Below are positions 1-59,397 of a DNA stretch of 64,000 bases, in pieces. Source of the stretch: Escherichia virus TH32; sequence record MT446405.1; one strand, 5' to 3'. Within the stretch, counting starts at the first letter, position 1. Each line of letters starts with the position of its first letter. Both the position numbers and the translations under genes were made by a program. The notes beneath the pieces were generated by a model that had not been told where the DNA came from, searched no databases, and saw only the letters and a list, made by a program, of their open reading frames with translations.

Positions 1-236
1 AGGCATATCTCATGAATGGTCTGGGTGGCACTTCTACCCTGACTGGCCCTTGCCCAAAGTTCAAAACGGCTATGTGACCAAATTCATTAAGTCGCGCGAC
101 TTCTGACACCAACATTCCTTCCCCACCAGTTTCTGAAGGGTATCTGGTAGAATCAAACCATCCTGCTTCAACAGTAAGACCCTTCATCGATTGAAGCGCC
201 TTTATCTGTTTTTCTATCATTTTTGATTTTGTCATA

Positions 237-818
237 TCACACCGGAATATCGCCTAAATCGTTATTAACAGCTCTTGCAACAGCAGGCGTGTCAATTGAA
301 ATTGCGTTTCTGTGAAGGATTACCAAATCAAAAGAAGGAAACGATTCAAACTGAGACATGTCGTCATAGAACTTTTCATTGTTGTTCATGTCGACTCTAT
401 ATACTGAAGCTTGATGCCTTTTAAACCAATCCCTCAAATTAGCCTTGTGGGTTATGAATCTTGCTAAATAAGTCAAAACGTCATTAGCCGTAGGCTTTTC
501 TGGATTGCCAGGAACTTCTGGAAATAAGCCGCTAATTTGAAAACGTGTTGCGTATATCTGATCTTCAATATCTTTAAATTTGCCATTAACGAATTGAGAT
601 TCATCATTGACAAATTCATTCTTTCTCATTGACCAACCGAATGGGACTGAGAATAAAAGGTTAAACCAAATCTGATCACCAGTCGGAATGCCCTGTTGAG
701 TCGGTTGGTATTTTTTCTGGACCGGAACAGCAGAAAGGTCTGCACGACTATACGCCGCCAGACCTTCTTCAATTCGCGTTGCCAGCATGTCAATCAGGTC
801 GACATCTGTCATATACAC
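237..818 (-). CDS. hypothetical virion protein (connector/neck region)
   Basis: Uncontested 193 aa ORF at distal end of minus-strand head module; no recognisable motif; position-based. Confidence 0.3.
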   Translation of the reverse strand: MYMTDVDLIDMLATRIEEGLAAYSRADLSAVPVQKKYQPTQQGIPTGDQIWFNLLFSVPFGWSMRKNEFVNDESQFVNGKFKDIEDQIYATRFQISGLFPEVPGNPEKPTANDVLTYLARFITHKANLRDWFKRHQASVYRVDMNNNEKFYDDMSQFESFPSFDLVILHRNAISIDTPAVARAVNNDLGDIPV

Positions 819-819
819 C

Positions 820-1206
820 TCAAGTAGACACTGGAAAGCTTTGTTTTACTTCCACGGCAAGGCAAGACGTCCAACCATCTTGGTCAAACCATGTCGTTTC
901 ATCTTCCATCTTGTACGTTTTGCCACCAAACACAAAATAGTCGCCGGAAGCGTCGCGGTCAAGGTCAACAATGTCTTTGTCCACCCAGATTTTGACATAG
1001 TTCTTTTGAAGCTCTAAACCAAGCTCAACGTATTGGTTTCGAAGTACAGCCTGCACCGAAGCAAGTAAGGTGATTGGTTCTTCATATGTAGTGACATAGT
1101 TGCGCATCTTATCAAGGGTGCGCCCCTTGTACATGTAATATTGAATCGGTTGGCGACCGATAACCTTTGTCGCAACTCGATATAAGTTTACGCCAGGAAT
1201 CCTCAC
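820..1206 (-). CDS. hypothetical head-tail connector protein
   Basis: 128 aa ORF, start overlaps stop of upstream gene (coupled); position in head module. Confidence 0.3.
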   Translation of the reverse strand: MRIPGVNLYRVATKVIGRQPIQYYMYKGRTLDKMRNYVTTYEEPITLLASVQAVLRNQYVELGLELQKNYVKIWVDKDIVDLDRDASGDYFVFGGKTYKMEDETTWFDQDGWTSCLAVEVKQSFPVST

Positions 1207-1667
1207 CAGAATACCCCACCAATTTTACGGAATCCTTCACGCTCTGGAAGGCCGCCGAATGACAAGCCGCCAACGGCCAGTGCTTGAAGAAGCGCCCACA
1301 GCGCCATGCCATATGGAGTGCTTGATAGCCAGTATTCCCAGCCATCACTCGCAGGCGGCGCGACTTTGTTCACTGTGATGTCACCAATTGTTGCTCCAGT
1401 CACGAAGCCGCCTTGTTCAACTCCGTCACCAGAAGACACAGACACTTGTTGGTCTGCGGCTATGCATAAAAGATGAGCCGTCATATATTCCAATGCCAGC
1501 TCCAATTTACTGCCATTTAAAACACGACAAGGACTGTCTTGTGATTCAATAAATTCACATGCCATGTCATAGAATACTTGAAGTGTTGTGTCAGGGAATT
1601 TAACCTGATCAGCAAACTGTGGAAATTTAATTCTGAACTTTTCGTAATCTAATGACATGGCATTCAC
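1203..1667 (-). CDS. hypothetical head-tail connector protein
   Basis: 154 aa ORF tightly packed after capsid-side genes; no motif. Confidence 0.3.
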   Translation of the reverse strand: MNAMSLDYEKFRIKFPQFADQVKFPDTTLQVFYDMACEFIESQDSPCRVLNGSKLELALEYMTAHLLCIAADQQVSVSSGDGVEQGGFVTGATIGDITVNKVAPPASDGWEYWLSSTPYGMALWALLQALAVGGLSFGGLPEREGFRKIGGVFW

Positions 1668-1672
1668 CTTAT

Positions 1673-2137
1673 TTAAACGCGGAACAAATCATCTTCTTGG
1701 TCGCCGCTCAATTTTACCTTGATGCGCTTGTCAGCAGTTTCGCGCGTCATAGGCGCAAACGGGTCGTCTGACATGCTGCGAACTTCTTTAGCGACGGCTT
1801 TGTGGTTGCCAACAATGTCGTGATTTACGACTTTCACCAAACCTTTTTCAAGATGCTGCTTAAACACGTGATGATCTTTCAGATGCTCAAAATCTGCATC
1901 GCTTACAACGGTGACGATTCCTTCAGGAGTCCACAAAGGTGCACCGTCAGCGCCTTTTGCCATTTCACCAAAGCCGGAAGTTGCTGAAGTAAGACCAGCG
2001 CCGCCCTTGATTAGAATCTGTTTGCGAATATTTGGAAGAGCGCCTGAACCAGCTTTTGCATTCGGGTTTTCTTTCACTTCCGTATAGAAAGTGTAGTTAA
2101 CTGACATAGACATAGTTGAAACGATGTATTTTGACAT
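1673..2137 (-). CDS. hypothetical virion protein
   Basis: 154 aa ORF immediately downstream of putative capsid gene; antisense ORF 1802..1987 judged spurious. Confidence 0.3.
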   Translation of the reverse strand: MSKYIVSTMSMSVNYTFYTEVKENPNAKAGSGALPNIRKQILIKGGAGLTSATSGFGEMAKGADGAPLWTPEGIVTVVSDADFEHLKDHHVFKQHLEKGLVKVVNHDIVGNHKAVAKEVRSMSDDPFAPMTRETADKRIKVKLSGDQEDDLFRV

Positions 2138-2252
2138 TTTGTAGTCCTATTTATATAAGCCTCAGATAAGCCCCTACAGCCCTTGAGGTCTATTGATATG
2201 GGGCGAAGCCTTTCGACCACGCCCCATGTGTTTTACTGTGTAATCACAGCAA

Positions 2253-3392
2253 TTAAATACCAGTCATACGGACGACTGCGAACGGACGCTTGAGCAGAAC
2301 GCCTGCTGTTGCGTTTGCGTAGTCTTCAACGTAGCTCTTAGCACGCTTTTCAACGCCCAGAGTCATGAACTTGGTTTGAACCAGCTGACTGAATACGGAA
2401 CCATCATCGCTTGAACCATCGATTGAGGAATCGATGTGATCGGCGTACAGGTATGCCACGTTCAAGAAAGTCGGGTCACTGCCAAGTGCGCCGTTGAGTT
2501 CCGGTGCAGATTTGATCTTCATCTTCGGATAAGTCTGGGTGATCCAGTCACGTACAGAAATACCGAAGTCAGTGGTGTTGGACAGCCAATCGATAGAGTT
2601 AGTCGGCAGCGCCAGAGTCATGTCAACTTTCTCTGGATCAATCTGGTCCTGAGAGTTCACACGAATTTGACGAACCATCAAACGGATGTCTGCAGTTACC
2701 TGTTGGAAAGTCGCAGTAGCCCAGCCGGAAGTGGTGTTGGAAGTCATCGCCGCTGGCAGGTTTGGATCATTCAGGAAGCCGAATGTGCGGTTGTTCCCGT
2801 TGTACCAGCCATAGAAGCCGATTGCGTTACGCATGATTTCCAGAGATACAGCAGCCTGCTGGCGCTTGGTTTCTGCGGAGTTCAGACGCATCGCAGACGC
2901 GCGGCCTTCTTCCAGCATACCAACTGCCATGCCCATTTCGCCACGAACGATAGAACGACGTTCAAAGTTTACGTTCCAGCTTGCCAGAGGAATAGAGGTG
3001 AAATCACCATATTCGACTGCGGTGCCAGCTGGTTCAACGATGCCCTGAACGATTTCTGCATCTTCCCACTGACCAACGGTATCAATACCAACCAGCTCGT
3101 CGATTTTACGAGCAGCGGTCATGATTTTGACGAAGCCAGGCAACCACTGCTGCAGGAACTGCAACGGGGTCGGGATTGACGGAGTGGTCTGCGGCGCAGT
3201 AAACGCGGCATCACCTACGCGGAAAGCGCCTGCACGGTTTAAGTGCTCAATCTGATCACGCACAATCGCGGAATCAAACACAATACCGATACGAGCAAGC
3301 TGGGAAACAGCCGCGTCGGTGACGGATTGCATATCAAAAGGTCGCACCTTGCTCGCTGGGAGGCGAGAGTGTGTTTGGCTAATGCGAGTCAT
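2253..3392 (-). CDS. major capsid protein (putative)
   Basis: 379 aa, size and position (terL-portal-morphogenesis-scaffold-X-capsid order); no motif verified. Confidence 0.5.
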
Positions 3393-3406
3393 TATTCACC
3401 TGCCTA

Positions 3407-4024
3407 TTAACGAGTCAATTGTACAATGGTATAAGTGGAAGACTGGACGCTTGGGCCGGAAAGGGCAATAGCAGTCGGGTCAATCACGATACCGCCTGGA
3501 ATGGCAACCATGCCAGTTGGCAGTGAGCCAGTATAGGCGATAATTGCACCGATAGGCAAGTTGTTCGGGTTGTTACCGCTGGAAATGCCTTTAGGTACAT
3601 AAGCGAGCAGGTCGCCGTAGTTCAGCGTCTGCGGACTGGTGCTTGGGTTGAATACTTCAACTACGAGGCCCGTGCACATATCGTAGAACTCGCCTTCGCT
3701 ATATTGAGGCAGAACCATGCTGGCACCCAAAGGACCAGTAGAGTTGCCATACAGAGCGTAACGCTTGCTGTTGCCAAGGATGCCATAGTAATTGGTGCCG
3801 CCCAGTTCAACTTCAAAGTCCTGCGCGCCCAAGGTTTTGGTCTGGCCAGTACCCATTAATGACACATCAGCCTTAAAACCAAACACACGGCTGATGGCGT
3901 TTACGTTTGCACCGTCGTTGGCGCTAACGATTCGGCCTGGCTTCCCACGCTGTGGGCCGTCGCGAACGATGTCGCCAGGAAAGCCAGTTGTATATTGACG
4001 GCCTACACTAGTTTGGAAAGTCAT
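3407..4024 (-). CDS. Gly/Ser-rich capsid-associated protein (possible decoration protein)
   Basis: Start moved to Met at 4024 preceded by AAGGGGA RBS; lies between scaffold and capsid genes. Confidence 0.3.
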   Translation of the reverse strand: MTFQTSVGRQYTTGFPGDIVRDGPQRGKPGRIVSANDGANVNAISRVFGFKADVSLMGTGQTKTLGAQDFEVELGGTNYYGILGNSKRYALYGNSTGPLGASMVLPQYSEGEFYDMCTGLVVEVFNPSTSPQTLNYGDLLAYVPKGISSGNNPNNLPIGAIIAYTGSLPTGMVAIPGGIVIDPTAIALSGPSVQSSTYTIVQLTR

Positions 4025-4026
4025 GT

Positions 4027-5448
4027 TTATTCCCCTTTCAACCAAGCTTCAAATGCTTCGTCAGTTGCTGCAGAATCCGCAGCGGCCTTTTGTTTTGCGA
4101 CTACACGCTGTTTTTGACCGTGCTCAACGCCGCGCAGATAATTATCCACCACGTCAAACTCAGCCCCATCAACGCACTTCAAGCCTAACTTTTTAGCGCC
4201 ATATTTCGCTACGGACTTGGAGTCCATAGTTGCATGATCAAAGGCACCAACAACTTTAGACAGGCGCTGGTAGAGGCTATTCTTACGAGCAGAATCAGCG
4301 TAGAAAGCAGCAACTGCTGAATCAGATGCCATTGAGTGTTCCCCTTTTGCTGGACCTGGCGACGCTTTCGCCGCTTTTGTCGGTTTGTCATCTTTTTCGA
4401 CCGAAGCCCCCTTTACGTTGCTGTTTTGCAGGCCGCTAACCACATCTTCAGCTTTGTCGCAAGGTGATACATCTTCAGCCTTGACTTCAACTTCTTCTTC
4501 GTCTTTGACTTCGGCTTCAACTTCTTCTTCATCACCTACCGCGCCACCTTTCAGTTTTGCAATAAGTGCTTCGATTTGGCTGATCAATTGCGGAAGTTCG
4601 CCGCCAGCGTGAGATTCAGCTTCAACTTCAAACTTCTCTTCACCTTCTGGGGTTTCTTCTGCTTCTGCCTTGACTTCTGGATCAACCATTACTTCTTCAC
4701 GATTTTCGGTTGAGTCCTTCTCTTCTGCTTTCACTTCAACTTCATCCTGATGAGCAGCTTCAGTACTCTCTTCGTTCAGAAATTGTTCGAGCGCAGGAAT
4801 CAGTGATTTCAGCTGTTCAACAGCATTATCACGCGCTTTACCTTTTAACGGTTTTGGCATGTCTAAATCCTCGTTGGATGGTGTTACAGTCGTCAAACAA
4901 AGATGGTCAAAGCAACGACCATCCAGCACCCGTGCACCTGGTACTCGACCAACGTCCACGAGAGCAATGTGGTTGCCGCGAAGAGTTGTCTGCACCACTT
5001 CATACGGCTGCCCGTCAAACTCTCCAGACTGTATGATGAATTCACAGTCATAGCCCAAAGACAAGTCAACCTTTCCAGAATCAATGGCCTTCTTAAGACG
5101 ACGGCTGAACACTTTAAGGTCGCCGCGCATCCATGGCTTGTCATAATAAACATTGCCAGTCAGAACGCCATCAACTCCATACTCTTCGGGTGCTGTGTTA
5201 TCCTCATCACCTTCAAATCCAGAAAGCATTTCGTGATTGTCGATGAAAGGGATATTTTTGAATGAATCTATCGCTTCGGGGTCTTTCACCGCTGACTCAG
5301 GGCGATAGACTTTTACGATGCGATTCGGATCACCATCAAGACCAACTTGACCAGCAGAATAATCAAAAATGCCAAATGACGAAATTGGACAACCCATAAT
5401 CGTCAAGAATCCATTTTTGTCAATTTCGCGTGCCGTTTGCATTCGCAT
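4027..5448 (-). CDS. scaffolding protein (possibly fused to prohead protease-like N-domain)
   Basis: 473 aa with long acidic Glu/Val/Ala/Lys-rich central stretch (EEEVEAEVKDEEEVEVKAED...), GAGGGTGG RBS; position between portal and capsid genes. Confidence 0.45.
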   Translation of the reverse strand: MRMQTAREIDKNGFLTIMGCPISSFGIFDYSAGQVGLDGDPNRIVKVYRPESAVKDPEAIDSFKNIPFIDNHEMLSGFEGDEDNTAPEEYGVDGVLTGNVYYDKPWMRGDLKVFSRRLKKAIDSGKVDLSLGYDCEFIIQSGEFDGQPYEVVQTTLRGNHIALVDVGRVPGARVLDGRCFDHLCLTTVTPSNEDLDMPKPLKGKARDNAVEQLKSLIPALEQFLNEESTEAAHQDEVEVKAEEKDSTENREEVMVDPEVKAEAEETPEGEEKFEVEAESHAGGELPQLISQIEALIAKLKGGAVGDEEEVEAEVKDEEEVEVKAEDVSPCDKAEDVVSGLQNSNVKGASVEKDDKPTKAAKASPGPAKGEHSMASDSAVAAFYADSARKNSLYQRLSKVVGAFDHATMDSKSVAKYGAKKLGLKCVDGAEFDVVDNYLRGVEHGQKQRVVAKQKAAADSAATDEAFEAWLKGE

Positions 5449-5471: not shown

Positions 5472-5500
5472 ATTATATCTAATGAAAAAAACTTAGGCAA
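5472..5500 (-). promoter_or_regulatory. sigma70-like promoter for scaffold/capsid genes
   Basis: Minus strand TTGCCT-N17-TATAAT about 25 nt upstream of start at 5448. Confidence 0.4.
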
Positions 5501-5558
5501 ACAATAATTATGGTTTGAATATGTATAACAACCGATATAGCCGCGCCTTTATTAGTGT

Positions 5559-5830
5559 GATACGGATGATACGGATAAAATGAGGCGTATTTTTATCCGT
5601 ATCGGTGTATAAGCCGCGCTATCACTGGTGTGCTACGGATGATACGGATGATACGGATACTTTTCATATATAAGAGTTTATAAAAAAATAAAATTAAATT
5701 AGATATATAATTTTAAATTAATTTATTTGAATTCCTATATAGTACTGCGGCAACGCGTATCATCCGTATCATCCGTAAGATTCTTTTGAAAACAACAACT
5801 TACTTGATACGGATGATACGTCATTATACG
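5559..5830. repeat. iteron cluster flanking AT-rich core (copy 1)
   Basis: GATACGGATGATACGG-type repeats in both orientations at 5559-5577, 5634-5660, 5756-5779, 5806-5820 around a >85% AT core at 5660-5745. Confidence 0.7.
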
Positions 5831-6011
5831 TATAAAACTCGCAGCAATCCTTTGCCGATGAATTCAGTGAATATTAAATAGCACTCCTGCCACTAAAACG
5901 CCAATCAACATCGAGTCATAAACAGCCCATTTCCAAGAAAGCAAAGAGTTGCAATTAATATTTCGCACTTTAACATAACGTGACTGAATAATCTTTTGCA
6001 TAACTTCCTCT

Positions 6012-18054: not shown

Positions 18055-18640
18055 CCGCGCAGGAGTGTACTGCAAATTTCCTGTGGGTACAAAATAGTAC
18101 GGTACTGTCCAGGACTTTTTCTTTGAAAAGTTAGTGGACCAAATGTGTAGTATTTTGATTAGTGTACCGCAAATTCCATCAAGTACCAAAACGCACCAAA
18201 AGACCCATGCCATAAAAACCACACGAACGCAATAATCAATCGACGTTACAGTTTCCAGCGTTACAATTCGAAAGCGAATGATTCGACGCATAATAATATG
18301 AAGCATAATGATTCGAAAGCAAATGATTGCGTGTAGGATAATATCGGTGGGGATTATTCTAGATGCATGTAATTTCGCATGCGTACTATTTTCGGACGAA
18401 GGGTCGGCATATTCCTCGTTTTAGTTCGGAACGAAGGGAAAGTTTTGCGCCTTTATAAAACAACGACTTACGCGACCCGCCCTAACGGTCCGATATAGGT
18501 GTCTATATAAAACAAGGACTTACGCGATGTTCTCCATTTAACGTAATACCTGTTATGCGAACTAAGACGCATCTCGAAGAAGATTATGCGACGACGAAGG
18601 GAAGGATAAAGGAGTTTTCGCGTAGGAGCGCATCGAGATA
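18055..18640. repeat. repeat-rich non-coding region
   Basis: Approx. 600 bp without credible ORF; repeat families GTAC(T/C)GCAAATT(T)CC, AATGATTCGAAAGC, CGAAGGGA and TATAAAACAA(C/G)GACTTACGCGA. Confidence 0.6.
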
Positions 18641-18645
18641 GGGAC

Positions 18646-18671
18646 GAAGAAAAGCCGCGACTAAGCGCGGC
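18646..18671 (-). terminator. rho-independent terminator (minus strand)
   Basis: Minus-strand GCCGCG-cttagt-CGCGGC followed by UUUUCUUC, 20 nt after stop of 18692..18982. Confidence 0.55.
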
Positions 18672-18691
18672 CTATTAGTAACGGAAGGGTA

Positions 18692-18982
18692 TTATAAGGA
18701 GACGATTTTAAAATAAGTTACTTCGCCGCCGAGTTGCGGTACAGCGATATATTCGCCGCCGATTTCGGTAATCGTATAAACGAAGCCGTTAATCGTTACG
18801 CGATAGGATACGATGTCCTCGTCGCGATACTTGTAAAGGTCGAGGAAGTTGATCGGCTCATAAATAGACTCGATAATCGCGTCTACGTTAGAGAGATAAA
18901 CGCTCTCTAAGGTTTCGCCAAATACGTTAGAGTTTTCGGAAGTTTCGACGCGAGCGGAACGGATAGCGGCTAAAGTAATCAT
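18692..18982 (-). CDS. small acidic protein, paralog family A/C
   Basis: 96 aa, AGGAGA RBS; paralogous to 19617..19901. Confidence 0.6.
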   Translation of the reverse strand: MITLAAIRSARVETSENSNVFGETLESVYLSNVDAIIESIYEPINFLDLYKYRDEDIVSYRVTINGFVYTITEIGGEYIAVPQLGGEVTYFKIVSL

Positions 18983-19049
18983 AATAATCTCCTAGTTGGT
19001 CGGGCGGGTAGCGACCTATTCGCTACCTCATCCCCTCTCGATATAAAAC

Positions 19050-19078
19050 ATTATAGTCTTAGTGTACGAAGAAGTAAA
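19050..19078 (-). promoter_or_regulatory. sigma70-like promoter
   Basis: Minus strand TTTACT-N17-TATAAT. Confidence 0.5.
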
Positions 19079-19090
19079 GCACTTTTTTCG

Positions 19091-19393
19091 TTATTTTGCG
19101 ATAAAATATTTATAAGCTTTATCGCCTTCTACGTCGATATACTCGACGATAATTAATGCTTCGCCGCGAGGCGTAACCGTCTCGATAAGGGTAACGGCTT
19201 CGTCGTCGGTCTTCGCGAAGCGGATGGCGCTACGTTCGGCGTATTTAATTTCGTCGAAGGAAAGGCCGACGAAGGCGACGGCGCGCGCTTTAATAATGCT
19301 CGTTTCGAGTTCCGCGTTAACGGCAGCGATAAGAGAGCGAACGGTTAAGCGGTCTTCGTCGTAAGTAAGGATGGAAGAGATTAAAGTAGTCAT
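19091..19393 (-). CDS. small protein, distant member of the same family
   Basis: Start at Met 19393 with GGGAGC RBS. Confidence 0.5.
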   Translation of the reverse strand: MTTLISSILTYDEDRLTVRSLIAAVNAELETSIIKARAVAFVGLSFDEIKYAERSAIRFAKTDDEAVTLIETVTPRGEALIIVEYIDVEGDKAYKYFIAK

Positions 19394-19449
19394 AATAAAG
19401 CTCCCGATGCTAGTAGAAGGAAGGGCCATCGCCCGTCTCGATATAAACA

Positions 19450-19477
19450 AGTATACGCGAGTGTACGAAGAAGTAAA
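19450..19477 (-). promoter_or_regulatory. sigma70-like promoter
   Basis: Minus strand TTTACT-N16-TATACT. Confidence 0.5.
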
Positions 19478-19520
19478 GAAAAAGATAAAATAATTTATCG
19501 CATTTTTATCGAAAAAGTGC

Positions 19521-19549
19521 TTTACTTTTTTCTACACTATATTATAATG
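19521..19549 (+). promoter_or_regulatory. sigma70-like promoter (divergent partner)
   Basis: TTTACT-N17-TATAAT. Confidence 0.5.
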
Positions 19550-19616
19550 TACTCATATCGGGACGGGATGAGTTAACGAATAGGTCGTTAACGCCTCTCC
19601 CAACTAGGAGTTTAAA

Positions 19617-19901
19617 ATGGCTATTCTTAACGTTTCTTCTATCCGTAACGCCATCGTCGAGAACTACGGCGTAAAACAAAAATTATCCGAAGTCTACGCC
19701 GCGAACGTAGACCAAACTATCGAAGAGGGTGGGGTAACGGTCGCCGAGGCTTTTAAACTTTACGCGGCGTTACCGGAATCGGACCGCGAAGCCTTCGAAG
19801 TAAACGTTAACGGATACTTCTTCGAAGCGGTCGAAATCGGTAATATTTTACTCGTTATGGGCGAAGAAGAATTTGAGACCTTCTCCCTCGTCGAAGCGTA
19901 A
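19617..19901 (+). CDS. small acidic protein, paralog family A/C
   Basis: 94 aa, TAGGAG RBS; shares motifs with 18692..18982. Confidence 0.6.
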   Translation: MAILNVSSIRNAIVENYGVKQKLSEVYAANVDQTIEEGGVTVAEAFKLYAALPESDREAFEVNVNGYFFEAVEIGNILLVMGEEEFETFSLVEA

Positions 19902-19981
19902 GAGAGGATTTTTAGAGCGTCGTGCGCGGCGCTTTAATAAAATTCTTTCGCGCCTAGCGCCCTAACAAATAGGAGTTTATT

Positions 19982-20608
19982 ATGGTTAGCTTAAATCGCT
20001 TTTCTACTAGCGGCGACGTTATCGCAACTAAGACCGCCGACCTCGTTGCATTTTACAATGCAAATTCCGGTTCGAAGCCGATTAAAAAGTTCGCTGACCG
20101 CCGGACCGCCGAGACTCGCGTAATCGCGCTAATCGAGTCCTTAAACGCGCTCGATGAGCCGTCCAACGAATCGCCCATCCCAGACGCGAAGCCGCGCGAG
20201 GAAGTGTCCAGCGATGTAAAAACGCACAAGGCGCGTGCGGTCGTTAAAAAGGCCGAGCCGACCCAGGAAGAACTCGACGCGATGAGCGATGAAGAGTATG
20301 AAGCCTTCGTTAAGAGCGGCTTAAACGATAGTGCAAATTGCGTAGTGCAAAATGGAACTCCTTCCCATCGCCGTTCGAATAGCGAAGGTATTGCAAAAAG
20401 TTGGGATAATAAGGAAGTGGCGCAAAAGCGTCTTACCCGTAACGGCGTTATGGTCGAGGGTGTAGGCGAGTTCAAATCGGTCCGCGTAGCATTCGCCGCG
20501 CTGGGCTTACCGGATAGCAAACACATTCGCTTCCGTATGAAGCTTAAGGAAGCTGGGCGCTTGAACTTCGAGTTCGGCAACAAGTCCTACACATTCCAGA
20601 TTATCTAA
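19982..20608 (+). CDS. hypothetical protein
   Basis: 208 aa, TAGGAG RBS; CpG-rich coding; contains two copies of the ATAGTGCAAAT motif in frame. Confidence 0.5.
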   Translation: MVSLNRFSTSGDVIATKTADLVAFYNANSGSKPIKKFADRRTAETRVIALIESLNALDEPSNESPIPDAKPREEVSSDVKTHKARAVVKKAEPTQEELDAMSDEEYEAFVKSGLNDSANCVVQNGTPSHRRSNSEGIAKSWDNKEVAQKRLTRNGVMVEGVGEFKSVRVAFAALGLPDSKHIRFRMKLKEAGRLNFEFGNKSYTFQII

Positions 20609-20615
20609 TCGAATG

Positions 20616-20640
20616 GCGGCCCTTCGGGGTCGCTTTTCAT
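20616..20640 (+). terminator. rho-independent terminator
   Basis: GCGGCCC-ttcg-GGGTCGC followed by TTTTCAT. Confidence 0.55.
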
Positions 20641-20983
20641 AGTGCAAATTGGTGGCTTATGAATACGCTTATTCTCATCGCTACGTTGTCCATCGGAAGT
20701 GGTCGCACCTTATCCCTTTACGACCATAGTGCAAATTGCGCTTACCCTACGCGCGTTGCGGCAATAGTTAATAGTGCAAATCGAATGCTATTCGAAACTT
20801 GTTGGCGGGTCGATAACGAGAAAGGGCGCATCGTCTTAGGTTATAGTGCGAATCTGCTGGTGGAGTCGTTCGATTGGACGGTTGAAGGTCGTAAATTGTT
20901 ACGTAAGGTGACTAAAAGATGACTTATAATAATACACTTTCTAACGCGTTTATGGTTGTAACCTTCCCCGTCGTATTACCGAT

Positions 20984-21023
20984 GGCCCTAGAAGTGGAGA
21001 AAATGTGTTCTAGGGCCGTTTTA
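20984..21023 (+). terminator. long hairpin, terminator-like
   Basis: 10 bp inverted repeat GGCCCTAGAA / TTCTAGGGCC with 14 nt loop followed by GTTTTA. Confidence 0.35.
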
Positions 21024-21036
21024 TAGTGCAAATTGG

Positions 21037-21509
21037 CTAGTGGCGGGAGAATTGCTCGCCTTCTTTGGCCGCCTCTCCGAAATCCTTGTAGAAATCGTCC
21101 ATGGAACGGCCCATTTTACTATTGCCGTTTTCATCAATCATCGTGATGCCGTAGATGATATTCAGTTCACGAATAGCATTAAGTTTGGCTGACGCCGCGA
21201 CTTCTGGATCACGCACAAGCTTGACCAAATTGTGAATTGCACCTTTTACGCTCCACAAATCCTTGAGTGGCATCTCTTCCATACGCTTTTTGAAGCGCAT
21301 TTTGTAGTATGGGTTGCGTTGCGCGCAAAGGATTCGCTGGCCAGTGTAGCTATCCGTTGCAACTTCCATTCCAAATACTAGTGCAAAAGCTGCGCGCATG
21401 TCATGGCCCTGAATAACAAGGTCAATGAACTCATCGAATAAAGCCTGATTGTGCTCTGCAAATCGCGGGTCTTCAAAGTCTTCAGGCATCGCTACATAAT
21501 CTTGACTCA
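21037..21509 (-). CDS. hypothetical protein
   Basis: Start at Met (MSQDY...) whose ATG lies inside an ATTTGCACTATG motif copy. Confidence 0.45.
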
Positions 21510-21738
21510 TAGTGCAAAATCCCATAGTGCAAATTAATAGTGTGAATTATACAATGGATGGACATTATATTCAAGTGCAGATTGATGTTCATTATGGCTA
21601 TAAACGTACACAAATCACAGTGCTGAATGGATAACGGACCGTGGTGCGTGGTGTACTGTTTGATACGTATAAAAGAAATCCATCCCTTTTGCCGCTTGTT
21701 ATGCAAATCAATGACTTAGCCGCTGCTGGCTGGTCGAA

Positions 21739-22011
21739 GCGTATCATGACGTATCATCCGTATTGCCGCAAGTCTTTGTTTTTACTTATATCTTACGGAT
21801 AATACGTTAAATATATAAATTAACATAAGTATGAGGATGTAGAAAAAAATTAATTTAAATGATTTTAAAATGGAGTTAATTAATTTTTCAAATTATATAT
21901 ATAACGATGCCCAGTTTTATCCGTATCATCCGTAAGATTAATGTACAAGCCAGGCGCGGCAAGGGCTGTACACTGATACGGATAAAAAACCATGACGTAT
22001 CATGACGTAAG
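21739..22011. repeat. iteron cluster flanking AT-rich core (copy 2)
   Basis: Same (C)GTATCATCCGTA-type repeats and AT-rich core (21800-21905) as at 5559-5830. Confidence 0.7.
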
Positions 22012-22270
22012 GGTGTACCAATTTGGAAAGGATGAATCCAGGAACGGCGCGGCCTGTAGCCATGATACGCTTAATTTTTAACCGTATTTTAGGCGTATCA
22101 AATGTGTTCAAACACCAAGTTTCACGACACTAAAATTTCAATCCATAGACAATTCCTAACAAACACCACGGACTAATAGATACGCCCTATAAAATATATT
22201 TCTAAATATTTCCGCACAATCAATAAATAAAACACAACCTCATAATCATTCCATCGCAAAACACGACCCA

Positions 22271-22298
22271 AACAACAAAAGGCCGCATAAAGCGACCC
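22271..22298 (-). terminator. rho-independent terminator (minus strand)
   Basis: Minus-strand GGGUCGC-uuuau-GCGGCC followed by UUUUGUUGUUU. Confidence 0.45.
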
Positions 22299-22348
22299 AT
22301 TGCACACATTCCATTCTTCAAAACACGTAAACAGTGTTCGTTTATTCA

Positions 22349-22885
22349 CTATATCTTAGGCATTAATCCCTTTTCAGTTCTCCTTTTTATTTCTTCTTTT
22401 ATCATTTTATTGGTGACTTTATAGCCAATCCTCTCCAATTCCAGCAGCACTTCGTTTTGGTATTTTTTTATCTTCACAATATCGACTGTATCCCTCCAAT
22501 AAGAAAATACCTTCTGAATTACTGCTTCATCCATTTTATATCTTGCTGTCGTCCTGTATTTCGATTTGAAGATATAATTGATTGCATCAGTCTTTAACCA
22601 TTCGCTTCTCAACTCAGGGTGATCATCCCAAAGAGCTATGGCAAACTCTTGCGGGCTTTTACATCTTTTTCTAAGCTCCTTTATGTAATCAGTTATGCTG
22701 GTTTTGTCACAAAAACGTTTGCGGCAAACTTTGCATTCTTCCTTGAGTAACCATTCAGCCTTATTACTTTGCGACGCTGATTCATTATCCCTTCTGTACC
22801 TGCCGCATATACTTATTCCTTCATTATCCAAGAAGTAATGCAAGTCTTTAGAATACTTAGCTTTACGCCAAAAGCCGCCCATCAA
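22349..22885 (-). CDS. Cys-rich hypothetical protein (zinc-finger-like)
   Basis: 178 aa with CGRY...CKVCRKRFC cysteine cluster. Confidence 0.4.
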   Translation of the reverse strand: MMGGFWRKAKYSKDLHYFLDNEGISICGRYRRDNESASQSNKAEWLLKEECKVCRKRFCDKTSITDYIKELRKRCKSPQEFAIALWDDHPELRSEWLKTDAINYIFKSKYRTTARYKMDEAVIQKVFSYWRDTVDIVKIKKYQNEVLLELERIGYKVTNKMIKEEIKRRTEKGLMPKI

Positions 22886-29233: not shown

Positions 29234-29881
29234 TTATCCTGTGGCCTGCATATTGCGTACATACTTCTGCTCTAATGAATAGATGAAGTCGGCGACAGTC
29301 AATCCCTTCGTGTGCCATTCATACATGGTGAAGCCTGTATTCAGGAAATAGCCGCGCACCTTGTCCATCGCTTCAGCTTCCTCCATTGAAGCCATCAGCG
29401 CCGCGACATTGTCATAAGAAGGCACAAATCCCTTCTTGCGTAGCGCATTGCGCAAATCCTTAGTTCGGAATCCAATCTTGCAGGGGTCATCACGACCCGT
29501 GGATGATGCGACCTTTGGAAGAGCAAGGAACTCTTTAAGGAACATTGCAATGTTCAAGTCGCCTGCGTCATCAAGCTTCTGGATTCGGTTGCGACCGCGA
29601 CCCTTGAATTCACTCGCACGAGGGTGAGAGCCAAAACAGTGCGCCCCTTCCAGTTTAGGGTCAATGATCATTACATCTTTCCCAATGCGCAACTCTACGT
29701 AGTAAAGATAAGACTCATCGACAAGCTTTGTGCGCTTGCAAGTGATTGAGTCCTTATCATAACCAAAGCCACGCAACACGGTTGAAATCATCCGGTTCAT
29801 TTCTTCGCCGTGAACATCACTTTCTTTGTTCAGTTCACCAAGATGTTGAAAGAATTTAGCGATGTTGATTGCTTTATTCAT
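29234..29881 (-). CDS. hypothetical protein
   Basis: 215 aa directly downstream of helicase gene. Confidence 0.4.
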   Translation of the reverse strand: MNKAINIAKFFQHLGELNKESDVHGEEMNRMISTVLRGFGYDKDSITCKRTKLVDESYLYYVELRIGKDVMIIDPKLEGAHCFGSHPRASEFKGRGRNRIQKLDDAGDLNIAMFLKEFLALPKVASSTGRDDPCKIGFRTKDLRNALRKKGFVPSYDNVAALMASMEEAEAMDKVRGYFLNTGFTMYEWHTKGLTVADFIYSLEQKYVRNMQATG

Positions 29882-31551
29882 CAGAATTCATCCTTATCTC
29901 TTCCCAAAGAACGTTTACGCTCAATAACCTTCTTCAAGAATTCAATATCTTCAGGGTCAGACTCATCGCGGATAAGATACGCTAAGATGGTCATCAAATC
30001 AGAAATGTATTCTCCTGCTTCATTCTTAATCAGCGGCGTAAAGTAACCGCGCTGGTTGCGATAGGTTGCAGGCTCAAAACCAAGCTTCGACATATGCGGC
30101 GCAAGGGTACGAGAGAAAGGCGACTTGCCGCACTTCGCTCTGAATCCCATAGCAATAGCACCACTGGTGATGTGCCAGCGTCCGCTGTGATGTCGGTCAT
30201 AAGGCGCGGTGATGACGACTTCAACAAGGTCGTTGTCCACCATCTCATCACGAATAACGCCGCGCGCACGTTCCATTTCGTTCTTACTAAACTCAGTAAG
30301 CATGCGAGATGTTTCACCAACAAACGCGTTGTAACCTGCTTCGCCGTGTTTTTCCATCCACGCAGCACACTCAGCCATCAACTGCCAAACGTCTTCTTTC
30401 AAAGTGGAAAGGTCAGCTTGGAAATCTTTCGACCAGTTCGGTTGCCCGTCCTTGTCAGCGAGTTGGCCAACAAAGATAGGGTACACACGACGGTTGCCCG
30501 TGTCGTCACGCTGCATGCCTGCGTATTCGTTGCCGTCCATGATCGCAATCCACTGGCGTGGTTTAACCTGAGTATCTTCAAATTTGAAGTCCAGGTCATC
30601 TTCCGTCTTAGTCAGGAATGCTTTCATGTTTTCGATGTCGGCCTTTTTAAAGCCTGTCATCTCGCCAACGTTCGCGATAATTGAGCGACCCGTAATAGCT
30701 CGCAAGAACGGGTTGAAGTTCTGCGCGGCTAAGTTCAACGGAATCGGTGTTGCGTGGCGGTCGTTCATAATAGCTTCGCAAAGCAGCTTGCTAAAATAAC
30801 TTTTCCCTGCGTTCTGGCCGCCGATGAGCGCGATAGAAATTGGCGCTTGACAGCCAGGGTTGGTCAGGCGGTTATAGAGCGATAGCCAAAAATACACACC
30901 GATTTGTCGGTTTAACTCTGTATCGAACGGTCGGAATAGCTCGATAAGGTATTTCTCGATGCGCGCAGTACCGTCCCATTCAGGCAGCTTCTTGTAGAAG
31001 AAGTCCATCAGGTCGTCGCGCTGATAACGCATGGCCCATTCCTTATAGGATTGAGCGACCTGACGTGAGTTTGGGTTAGACAGCCCTGCTGCGTCGACAG
31101 CGGCAACTATCTCTGTGACTTCCAAGGTACGGTCAGTGAATGTTTCGCCGCGATGGTCGACTAAGCGCCCACGAAAAGTATCTTTGTGAGGGAATGGAAC
31201 AATGCCACTTCCCTTATCAAACAACGCGTCGAAAACCGCATAACGGTTCATGTCACTCGTCCGGTCTGCCTGTAGAACGAAGTCATCTTTGGTAGGCTTG
31301 TAGTGAGGGAACTTGATTACCTGAAGTGAGGCGAGCAAGCGTGCTCTTTCAACCAAGTCTTCTTCACCGTAGCATTCCATGCGCTCTGAATCTTTTTCAA
31401 CAGCTTTATGTTGAAGGCTGATTTTAGCTCTGGTGCCTTGCTGCTCTGCTGCCTGCATTTCTTCCGAAACGCCTGCATCTTGAATTTCGTCAAAGATTGC
31501 ACCAAATTCATCACCTGTATCCTCTGGAAGATTGTCATTATTAATTGACAT
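29881..31551 (-). CDS. P-loop NTPase, D5/VirE-like primase-associated helicase (putative)
   Basis: Walker A IALIGGQNAGKSYF in C-terminal half, 556 aa; occurs with an AEP primase two genes upstream. Confidence 0.5.
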   Translation of the reverse strand: MSINNDNLPEDTGDEFGAIFDEIQDAGVSEEMQAAEQQGTRAKISLQHKAVEKDSERMECYGEEDLVERARLLASLQVIKFPHYKPTKDDFVLQADRTSDMNRYAVFDALFDKGSGIVPFPHKDTFRGRLVDHRGETFTDRTLEVTEIVAAVDAAGLSNPNSRQVAQSYKEWAMRYQRDDLMDFFYKKLPEWDGTARIEKYLIELFRPFDTELNRQIGVYFWLSLYNRLTNPGCQAPISIALIGGQNAGKSYFSKLLCEAIMNDRHATPIPLNLAAQNFNPFLRAITGRSIIANVGEMTGFKKADIENMKAFLTKTEDDLDFKFEDTQVKPRQWIAIMDGNEYAGMQRDDTGNRRVYPIFVGQLADKDGQPNWSKDFQADLSTLKEDVWQLMAECAAWMEKHGEAGYNAFVGETSRMLTEFSKNEMERARGVIRDEMVDNDLVEVVITAPYDRHHSGRWHITSGAIAMGFRAKCGKSPFSRTLAPHMSKLGFEPATYRNQRGYFTPLIKNEAGEYISDLMTILAYLIRDESDPEDIEFLKKVIERKRSLGRDKDEF

Positions 31552-32860: not shown

Positions 32861-33943
32861 CTATTTTATGCCACCTGCACGACGATTTATCATGTCAAGT
32901 TGATTCTCAATATAAGGCATGACGATTGCTTCAACAAAAGCAGTCCAACCTTTCTTGCCTTCCCCTTTCCGGTGACAGTCGTGGGCGCAACCGAACACAA
33001 ACTCATGTTCTGCACCAGGGATAGGGCCGCGAAAGTAAGCGCCATACGGGTCGCCGTTGGTGTGTTCTTCACCCCAAGGACAGATTATGCGGCACTTGCC
33101 TGACATATTCTCGATGACGTCGCCATCAGACCCTTCACCCATCTTGTTGCGCGCTAGAATTTGCTGGGCTATTTTATACCAAACAGCATCATACTTGTAT
33201 TCATCGACGTCAATTTGAATCTCACGCTTTTGCGGCATGACGACGTGAAAGCCAAATGCCTGACAAATGTCTTCGATGGTGTAGCGCAAGGAGTAGTCTG
33301 CATGGACAAGTCGGCAGCGGAACGGGTTGCCGTTCTCATCGACATATTTATAGGGGCCGTCGTGAGTCACACGCTTGTTGTTGATGCACCCAGGAACACG
33401 GCCCACGCGCGTTACGTCTTTAATCGTGTTGTCGCCGCCCTTCTTGAGTACCATGTTTACGAAAGACCCAAGGAATGCTTTGAACTGAATAAGATGGTCA
33501 ATCGGTTCTTTAAAGAAGTACCAAAGCTGGTGGTTGTTCGGTGAAGTCTCGACGATGACAGTCGGCTTCAGTCGCTCAAAAAAGAATTCCAAATCTAAAT
33601 CGCCTTTGGACCCTTTACCGTGACCGATGTCGTCGACCATCATCGCCATGCCGTGACCAAAGGCCGACTCTGTACGCCAGTATCGCATCTCACCCGTCTT
33701 TGGGTTGGGAGACTTACGCATTGAACTGATGCACGCATAGCCGTTTTGGTGCTGCATGAGCGGCTTGCCCAGCTTCCAAGGCTTAGGCCAAAAGCTACTG
33801 TTAATCTTCTTGCCGCGCTCATCGGTCTGCACCGTTGCTTCAGGCGCAAACACCGTCATGACGCGTTCATCTTCTGGAATGCCTCTTTGGAGTTCTGTTA
33901 AAAACTCTTCGATTATTTTTGCTTCTTCTCTTAAACTAGCCAT
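32861..33943 (-). CDS. archaeo-eukaryotic-type primase (prim-pol) domain protein
   Basis: Motifs MAMMVDDIG (DxD), SPNNHQLWYFF (sxH) and RVPGCINNK resemble AEP motifs I-III; first gene of early operon. Confidence 0.55.
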   Translation of the reverse strand: MASLREEAKIIEEFLTELQRGIPEDERVMTVFAPEATVQTDERGKKINSSFWPKPWKLGKPLMQHQNGYACISSMRKSPNPKTGEMRYWRTESAFGHGMAMMVDDIGHGKGSKGDLDLEFFFERLKPTVIVETSPNNHQLWYFFKEPIDHLIQFKAFLGSFVNMVLKKGGDNTIKDVTRVGRVPGCINNKRVTHDGPYKYVDENGNPFRCRLVHADYSLRYTIEDICQAFGFHVVMPQKREIQIDVDEYKYDAVWYKIAQQILARNKMGEGSDGDVIENMSGKCRIICPWGEEHTNGDPYGAYFRGPIPGAEHEFVFGCAHDCHRKGEGKKGWTAFVEAIVMPYIENQLDMINRRAGGIK

Positions 33944-58672: not shown

Positions 58673-59397
58673 TCTATCATATCCCCAGTTCTGTTTCCAG
58701 GTCCGTTACCTATGTGACCGTGAGTGGATACATTTGTGCCGCCGATTGTTGTGCCAGTCGGAAGCGTTGCCGTCGTTCCTTCTTTCCCTTCTATACCACC
58801 ATTGAACGTTGCCTTTCCATTCACTATCAATTGTTGGTCGATAGTGGTTATTGGTGTTTTCACATTTACTCCAGCCGATGCAGTTATGTTTATCGAGTCA
58901 TCACTTAATGCAATGCGGACAGCGCCGCTGAGTGACTGGATTACCATTGAGCCTGCATCCTCTCCGCTTATGGTGTATTTTCGAAATACATCCGGTATGA
59001 ACAGTCCATCAGCGAAAGTTTTCGCGCGACCATTGGTAGGCGCGGTCGGCTTCAATTCTTCAAGGAATGTCGACAACTCGCGGTCGCCAGCGAATATCCA
59101 GCCCAAATCACCCTCTTTCAGAGGAAAGTTGATTACGAAGCCGCCGCCGCCGATTGCCAATACAGGAATTGACACCAAAGGTTGACGCTCCACTGGTTTA
59201 TCATCAAGACTTACGAAGTGAATAACAGGCTTTATGACTGCTAAATTCTGTTTGCGGTCATAAGATATTACTTGTGCAGGAATCATGCCGTCAGTGGTAT
59301 ACTTGCCACGGTCCAGCATTCCCTGCAGCGCGGCAAACATACTTGATTTGTCAGTTTGGTTGGGGCTTGTAAGTTGGGTTAACTTTTCTGCCATCAT
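58669..59397 (-). CDS. baseplate spike/assembly protein (V-like), putative
   Basis: Start at MMAEK with AAGGAG RBS; Gly-rich C-terminal beta-strand-like repeats; position-based. Confidence 0.35.
   Translation of the reverse strand: MMAEKLTQLTSPNQTDKSSMFAALQGMLDRGKYTTDGMIPAQVISYDRKQNLAVIKPVIHFVSLDDKPVERQPLVSIPVLAIGGGGFVINFPLKEGDLGWIFAGDRELSTFLEELKPTAPTNGRAKTFADGLFIPDVFRKYTISGEDAGSMVIQSLSGAVRIALSDDSINITASAGVNVKTPITTIDQQLIVNGKATFNGGIEGKEGTTATLPTGTTIGGTNVSTHGHIGNGPGNRTGDMIE

Follow-up and report, generated by a model that had tools for sequence, protein, structure and literature searches.

In phage P4, the origin of replication, ori, and a second locus, crr, are separate cis-acting elements that have their iterons in common, and the alpha primase-helicase binds both. 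The two loci lie 4.5 kb apart and are structurally unlike each other, the second locus works in either orientation, and packaging proceeds from a cos site elsewhere. Phage SPP1 has two origin-like loci, oriL and oriR, with common initiator boxes, one of them in the late region, and phage T7 has secondary origins close to the ends of its terminally repeated genome. Among packaging sites, SPP1 pac (pacL-pacC-pacR), P1 pac, with hexamers on both sides of the cut, and the cosN-cosB-Nu1 system of lambda have repeats that are sites for TerS, PacA or Nu1. The origins of SaPIs contain 6-12 short iterons, of which at least two lie on either side of a central AT-rich region, in opposite orientation; they sit just downstream of rep, and the Reps are self-loading helicase-initiators, one hexamer per side (PMC9371898).

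The DNA analysed here, a stretch of 64 kb with an overall G+C content of 46% (the window), comes from a Wifcevirus, a PB1-like E. coli myovirus. Pbunavirus, Wifcevirus and their relatives, the PB1-like phages, have found wide use in phage therapy and synthetic rebooting. The Wifcevirus group is described in the literature as PB1-like phages with a terminal repeat of about 3.7 kb; the literature on Wifcevirus-type phages yielded nothing on origins or packaging signals, and both were previously undefined for PB1-like phages. Window positions 21500-22400 matched 28 phage records at about 90-95% identity, all of them Wifcevirus or close relatives, and the phages concerned are E. coli and Shigella myoviruses of 66-72 kb. 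We propose that the window carries a replication origin module in duplicate, at loci that we call A and B, and that copy B also carries the terminase initiation cut; as a whole, this reading has in our judgement an even chance of being right.

The two copies of the 9-mer module

The consensus 9-mer NCGTATCAT clusters at only two places in the 64 kb, locus A (5557-5831) and locus B (21659-22101). Counting units with at most two mismatches to CCGTATCAT, there are 24 across the two loci, with an invariant CGTA core; ATCCGTATC has nine exact matches in the window, where about 0.5 would be expected from length alone, and all nine fall within A or B. Both loci are nested quasi-palindromes in which inverted 9-mer arrays surround an AT-rich core (Table 1). 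Units inside one array are in tandem at 9-bp spacing, and those on the two sides of each core run in opposed directions. A module copy measures 250-300 bp, with a core of about 100 bp, and the two cores are the top two AT-rich islands of the window, the minimum G+C over 80 bp being 8.75% in A and 13.75% in B. Two sets of iterons are present in A (3+3 units) and in B (2+2 inner units plus outer units). The 3+3 units of A build a perfect 22-nt inverted repeat (5634-5655 and 5756-5777) around a 100-bp AT core. B has an inverted repeat of 27 nt (I1, 21780-21806 and 21922-21948). A further inverted repeat in B joins 21805-21821 to 21890-21906, and CTGATACGGATAAAA forms a perfect 14-nt inverted repeat with 21915-21928.

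A and B align over about 240 bp, far beyond chance. The plus strand of A scores 79 against the minus strand of B, compared with 24.8 +/- 4.0 (maximum 38) for block shuffles, and 61 against the plus strand of B, compared with 33 +/- 5.8 for shuffles. The window has exactly two copies of the 19-mer CCGTATCATCCGTAAGATT, starting at 5764 and 21921. The sequences outside the arrays show that, in Wifcevirus, A and B are oppositely oriented with respect to the genes downstream of them. Among Wifcevirus records, 28 of 28 contain locus A, at 95-99% identity, and 28 records contain locus B, at about 90-95% identity. We found no third copy in the window or in the examined parts of the Mansfield genome, and an Rfam search of 21400-22400 gave no match at E values up to 1.

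The original prediction had described 21739-22011 as the second copy of an element made of iterons and AT-rich DNA, and this is correct, as the A/B alignment and the shared 9-mer units show. All four strings that it quoted are in place, at 21739, 21792, 21915 and 21973; the AT-rich core that it put at 21800-21905 has a measured G+C content of 14% against 46% for the window; and the verbatim sharing with the 5.7 kb locus is borne out by CCGTATCATCCGTAAGATT, at 5764 and 21921. Its suggestions that the loci should align beyond chance and be conserved together in relatives hold for the A/B score and for the Wifcevirus records, which keep both loci. The element is real, but the proposed span was too small, since units reach from 21659 to 22101.

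Table 1. Features of the two modules and of the genes discussed, in window positions (a slash marks the cut)
Feature	Position	Strand	Remarks
Head maturation protease gene	4027-5448	-	
Sigma-70-like promoter TTGCCT-17-TATAAT	5472-5500	-	upstream of head maturation protease gene
Module copy A	5557-5831		outer arrays 5557-5605 and 5804-5831
Direct terminal repeat (DTR), about 3.7 kb	18118-21871		inferred from relatives
TerS, small terminase	21037-21510	-	profile match to PDB 7UXE
Sigma-70-like promoter TTGAAT-17-TATAAT	21546-21574	-	upstream of terS
Outlying palindromic unit TTTGATACGTATAAAA	21659-21674		terS-proximal side; invariant in 5 Wifcevirus genomes
Outer terS-proximal array GCGTATCAT GACGTATCAT CCGTATTG	21739-21765	+	abuts TTGCCGC (GCGGCAA) box
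Inner array, DTR side of core, ATCTTACGG ATAATACGT	21790-21807	-	one arm of I1
AT-rich core of B	21808-21914		about 14% G+C; nested palindromes
Central palindrome of B core	21845-21866 and 21867-21888		the two arms
Terminase cut (predicted)	21871-21872		minus strand reads TTAACTCC/ATTTTAAAATC; left DTR boundary; from relatives' ends
Inner array, unique-sequence side, TTTTAT CCGTATCAT CCGTAAGAT	21915-21938	+	other arm of I1
GC-rich palindromic spacer TGTACAAGCC..GGCTGTACA	21942-21972		contains GCGCGGCAA
Outer terS-distal units CTGATACGGATAAAA, GACGTATCATGACGTAAGG	21973-22101		plus units at 22062-22101
VapE/VirE-like helicase	29881-31551	-	candidate 9-mer reader; Pfam PF05272
RepB-type primase	32861-33943	-	Pfam PF16793, E=3e-36; PHROG DNA primase

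The 250 bp from the B core to terS are almost invariant. Outside the repeat boundary, homology among Wifcevirus isolates breaks just past the first array; in ECML-117 and FEC19, the DNA that replaces the outer arm of B again bears 9-mer units. The stretch 21973-22101 abuts a mosaic breakpoint found among relatives. Such a breakpoint lies just outside the terS-distal array of B both in Wifcevirus (window 21940-22350) and in Pbunavirus (L017, about position 1363), which suggests recombination at the module edge.

Other sequence features were seen in and around the module. A perfect IHF consensus, AATCAATGACTTA, lies at 21706-21718, between the arrays and the terS promoter, and is invariant in five Wifcevirus genomes; across the window, the IHF consensus shows no enrichment (six matches, 4.2 expected). 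The heptamer GCGGCAA/TTGCCGC occurs 39 times in the 64 kb, for example at 5747, 21689, 21763 and 21956, where about eight occurrences are expected from length. Given that these 39 are spread across the window, we rejected the heptamer as a locus-specific signal, and its excess may be a codon effect in coding DNA. In all genera that we examined, boxes of the GCGGCA type are found in both A and B, and they stand out in the non-coding modules. Lastly, the Mansfield annotation includes a 52-aa ORF, gp001 (window 21589-21747, minus strand), that begins inside an iteron (ATGATACGC...). This ORF is truncated to 49 codons here and is not conserved in a relative whose TerS is 68% identical; it is probably spurious, and we do not count it as a gene.

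The small terminase gene and the genome end

The gene that B adjoins had been called an early gene (21037-21509), a label that finds no support: a profile of its homologues matches the small terminase of phage E217 (PDB 7UXE) with E=3.4e-66, and the Mansfield record annotates the equivalent of 21037-21510 as TerS. Between its promoter and its start codon, terS has two to three repeats of TTTGCACTATG, which overlap the ATG (21511-21545), and an inverted copy lies just past its stop codon (21020-21036); the relative with 68% TerS identity has three to four copies (L011, 9950-10010). The repeats could serve terS as an operator or in the control of its translation.

The Mansfield genome has a PhageTerm-derived direct terminal repeat at 1-3673, and the WFC record has a 3784-bp repeat at both ends. 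Both records open with ATTTTAAAA..., which corresponds to window position 21871 on the minus strand, and the physical left end therefore lies within the AT core of B. The position is transferred to the window from relatives that are 90-95% identical across locus B. It falls 5 nt from the core dyad, on the terS-distal side, and 360 nt upstream of terS. The sequence AACTCC/ATTTT is invariant in five Wifcevirus genomes while the rest of the core varies, and is retained in the metagenomic relative with 68% TerS identity. Homology to these mapped relatives makes it highly probable that the predicted terminase initiation cut lies in B between 21871 and 21872 and corresponds to the left end of virion DNA. 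This terminus, which had been overlooked, is the best-supported fact on this stretch. Copy A lacks the cut sequence CTCC/ATTTT, and physical ends do not map to it recurrently.

The right end of the DTR lies at about 18198 according to Mansfield, with which Pantoea phage Kyle agrees by homology, and at 18118 according to WFC. Mansfield and WFC are near-identical, yet their right ends are 81 bp apart; the direct repeat AGTGTACYGCAAATTYCC flanks the right-end region, at about 18064 and about 18160. The sequence CAGTACACTAATCA lies near the right end of the DTR in the window and is present beside the right end of Kyle too. The right end may be fuzzy, in a headful-like manner, or may have its own signal. 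Inside the DTR, the 390 bp or so at 18306-18692 are without an ORF of at least 50 aa and contain several GACGAAGGGA-like words, and repeats of AATGATTCGAAAGC occur just upstream, at 18260-18330.

The module in other genera and its candidate readers

TerS homologues with 32-43% identity are found in Kyle, Serratia phage MyoSmar, about 300 Pbunavirus records and Xanthomonas Carpasinavirus, and at least four other lineages likewise have A and B as a pair. The repeat words are GGAATAACC / AATATCCGAA in Kyle, TACTTTTCG in MyoSmar and GGTAATTTG / AATTTCCGG in the Pbunavirus JG024. In each of these three phages, A lies at the equivalent syntenic position and has in common with its own B the word of that phage and a long extra similarity, with direct A-versus-B scores of 125, 62 and 110, respectively, against shuffle means of 21-24. 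Of 297 Pbunavirus records, 295 contain locus A. The relative whose TerS is 68% identical has the unit ACGTATCAT at both loci, and the alignment of its A with its B is not significant.

The ends known for these phages also fall at their B loci. In Kyle, the 3603-bp DTR starts within the AT core of that phage (..ATAAATTC/ACTTAAAAAAAA..) and, as in Wifcevirus, does so on the terS-distal side of the dyad, at a distance of 5.5-9 nt. In MyoSmar, inverted repeats of the TACTTTTCG type enclose the PhageTerm boundary, which precedes terS by 387 nt, and the core is less clear. JG024 packages by the headful mechanism, and its pac cut was placed at 59,376 from the starts of long reads together with a pac fragment (PMC10913387). 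Position 59,376 borders an AT island that has GGTAATTTG / AATTTCCGG repeats on its flanks, and precedes terS by 616 nt; the records of four other Pbunavirus phages open at the equivalent base. One of the approximately 300 Pbunavirus records, that of Pseudomonas phage E215 (NC_042080.1), begins inside the AT core of locus A (L018, about position 1166), not B. Its start could be arbitrary, or could hint at occasional cutting of copy A.

In Pbunavirus (JG024 and LBL3), MyoSmar and Carpasina, the helicase gene and its terminator are followed directly by the module. Tandem CCAACCCAGCA / CAACCCCAGAA repeats adjoin the Carpasina module, downstream of the helicase gene (L025, 2600-2680). In XcP1, we found no module within 1 kb upstream of terS, nor upstream of the protease gene, and a second module copy was not seen.

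The repeat word changes between phage genera, three of which infect Enterobacterales, and is common to the two loci within a genome; hence the reader would be phage-encoded and co-evolving with the word. On this co-variation across genera, it is very probable that the repeats are read by a phage-encoded protein. No match to the DnaA box TTATCCACA (at most one mismatch) and no GATC site occurs in locus A or B, and the lack of DnaA boxes argues against DnaA as the reader. We rejected an iteron origin of the DnaA/plasmid RepA type, given that DnaA boxes are missing and that the repeats are inverted 9-mers, not direct iterons of about 20 bp.

Two phage proteins are candidates. The first is the VapE/VirE-like helicase, which (as window 29884-31551) matches the SaPI1 Rep1 initiator (PDB 7PDS) with E=4e-11 in a stretch that contains the Walker A motif (residues 190-361), and with E=1.1e-16 when a small profile is used. 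The sequence similarity to Rep1 is confined to the ATPase core. The C-terminal portion of about 115 residues is variable between lineages; a homologue search with this fragment gave no matches, and the single-sequence AlphaFold model with which we looked for a winged helix was of poor quality (pLDDT 43). The second candidate is TerS, whose N-terminal part differs between lineages far more than the remainder does and is nearly unchanged in the relative that has a nearly identical 9-mer. A stretch within this part is a putative DNA-recognition helix. The passage on E217 TerS, a homologue, in one review reports no appreciable DNA binding in vitro (PMC9611059).

Origin, terminase site or regulatory platform

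We favour the view that the module is a replication origin of the SaPI-Rep/P4-alpha type in two copies; by analogy with those systems, we regard the case for it as evenly balanced. A VapE-like self-loading helicase would bind the 9-mers through its variable C-terminal region, one hexamer would load per side and the AT core would melt, and the RepB-type primase would then prime at the melted core. In B, the terminase cut would create the left end of the DTR of about 3.7 kb, upstream of terS; copy A would have no role other than that of a second origin or partner site. The original prediction had raised dual origins, an idea that gains support from the SaPI-like architecture, the Rep1 homologue and the helicase adjacency in three genera. 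Several points weigh against an origin. B lies about 8 kb from the helicase gene in this genome, and A further, so that the location of an origin next to rep is not seen here; B is only 360 nt from terS, and adjacency in this genome thus favours a terminase role. SaPI iterons are 5-6 nt long, not 9, and two near-identical origins 16 kb apart would be unusual. We rejected GC/AT skew as an origin signal, since its sign changes track gene orientation and hold no origin information.

A pac cut within an origin also has little precedent; we found a single sentence in the literature that raises the idea (PMC6521218). A stronger version of the origin proposal, which we think improbable, is that initiation of replication and initiation of packaging are mechanically coupled, such that terminase would cut B only when the helicase-initiator has assembled on the module or melted it. 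The terminase would then work without classical pac recognition, copy A would be required, either synapsing with B or licensing the cut, and the repeat of about 3.7 kb would mean that packaging starts at origin B and stops about 105% of a genome length later. If true, this would be an undescribed, origin-dependent choice of genome end common to therapeutic PB1-like phages.

The main rival to an origin with a packaging cut is that the arrays are terminase recognition sites in the manner of SPP1 pacL/pacR, the P1 pac hexamers or lambda cosB, with TerS rings on both sides positioning TerL to cut the AT core of B, and with copy A as an uncut second TerS-binding site for synapsis, sequestration or regulation. 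This is possible but, we think, doubtful. In its favour, two genera have the cut close to the dyad that the arrays surround, the distance from B to the downstream terS gene is 360-620 nt in Wifcevirus, Kyle, MyoSmar and Pbunavirus, the 250 bp from core to terS hardly vary, and the TerS N-terminus is variable between lineages and near-constant where the 9-mer is near-constant. However, the review passage cited above reports that E217 TerS is without appreciable DNA binding in vitro, and the Carpasina module adjoins the helicase gene, 3.3 kb from terS. A pure terminase site also leaves unexplained why copy A retains a full AT core of about 100 bp with no recurrent end.

A further alternative, which we consider unlikely, is that the module is an upstream regulatory platform, whether operator or activator/silencer site, for a phage protein that times the promoters of terS and of the head protease/scaffold/capsid operon, with the end located there for unrelated reasons. 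Locus A has small head-module genes on one side and the head maturation protease gene on the other, and consensus-like promoters lie between module and gene at both loci (21574-21546 and 5500-5472). By eye, we read equivalent promoters in Kyle, MyoSmar and the genomes L011 and L012, and the annotators of LBL3 put predicted promoters inside the AT cores. However, the orientation of copy A with respect to its gene is inverted in Wifcevirus, whereas Kyle, MyoSmar and JG024 have it direct; the module is therefore orientation-independent, which is a poor fit to a directional promoter element. From the arrays to the -35 hexamers downstream there are 60-330 bp, the genome has other sigma-70-like promoters that are without a module, and neither the conserved cut nor the helicase adjacency is explained. 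The original suggestion of a regulatory element reused at an early and a late transcription unit is weakened accordingly: the promoters are present, but the orientation is not constant.

Lastly, a selfish MITE-like palindromic repeat or recombination hotspot with no role in replication or packaging would account for the palindromic structure, the two copies and the mosaic breakpoint that abuts B in Wifcevirus and Pbunavirus, but is very improbable, given that the two copies occupy matching syntenic positions in five lineages, that each lineage's word is common to its two copies, and that the replacement outer arm in ECML-117 and FEC19 again has 9-mer units.

For the origins and packaging signals of PB1-like phages, one element now supplies candidates for both, comprising a cut site, the repeat words of each genus and a candidate for the protein that reads them, and its conserved second copy, A, is absent from all annotations. 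Should the module be an origin, virulent myoviruses would join the SaPIs in having origins for a self-loading helicase, and the question would arise of why the packaging cut sits at its dyad. For genome engineering, the module indicates about 600 bp to leave intact and where linear ends should be placed.

Returning to an origin that also holds the packaging cut, SPP1 oriL/oriR and the secondary origins of T7 differ from the module in having other initiators and another architecture, and the end is not known to lie at an origin dyad in those phages. SPP1 pac, P1 pac and lambda cos resemble it in that protein-binding words flank a central cleavage region, with the small-terminase gene adjoining. 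By contrast, those systems are not known to have a second full copy elsewhere, whereas there are two copies here, and their repeats are known TerS sites, whereas the related E217 TerS was without DNA binding in vitro in the review passage already cited (PMC9611059). P4 likewise has two cis loci with common iterons and one initiator of the primase-helicase type, but neither ori nor crr is known to be a packaging site, and here copy B holds the cut. The likeness to SaPI origins includes repeats in two opposed sets around an AT-rich region, roughly 6-12 per origin, a repeat specificity that differs between elements, and a VapE-like helicase initiator, the phage homologue of which matches Rep1 (7PDS); in the relatives Pbunavirus, MyoSmar and Carpasina, it extends to a module just downstream of the helicase gene. 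Unlike SaPI origins, the phage module has units that are tandem 9-mers at 9-bp spacing, not penta- or hexamers, is present in two copies per genome, one of them holding the packaging cut, lies 8 kb from the helicase gene in this genome, and belongs to a virulent myovirus of 68 kb, not a satellite. Set against all of these systems, the module combines a pac/terminus site with what we infer to be an iteron origin, duplicated and conserved across a therapeutic phage family.
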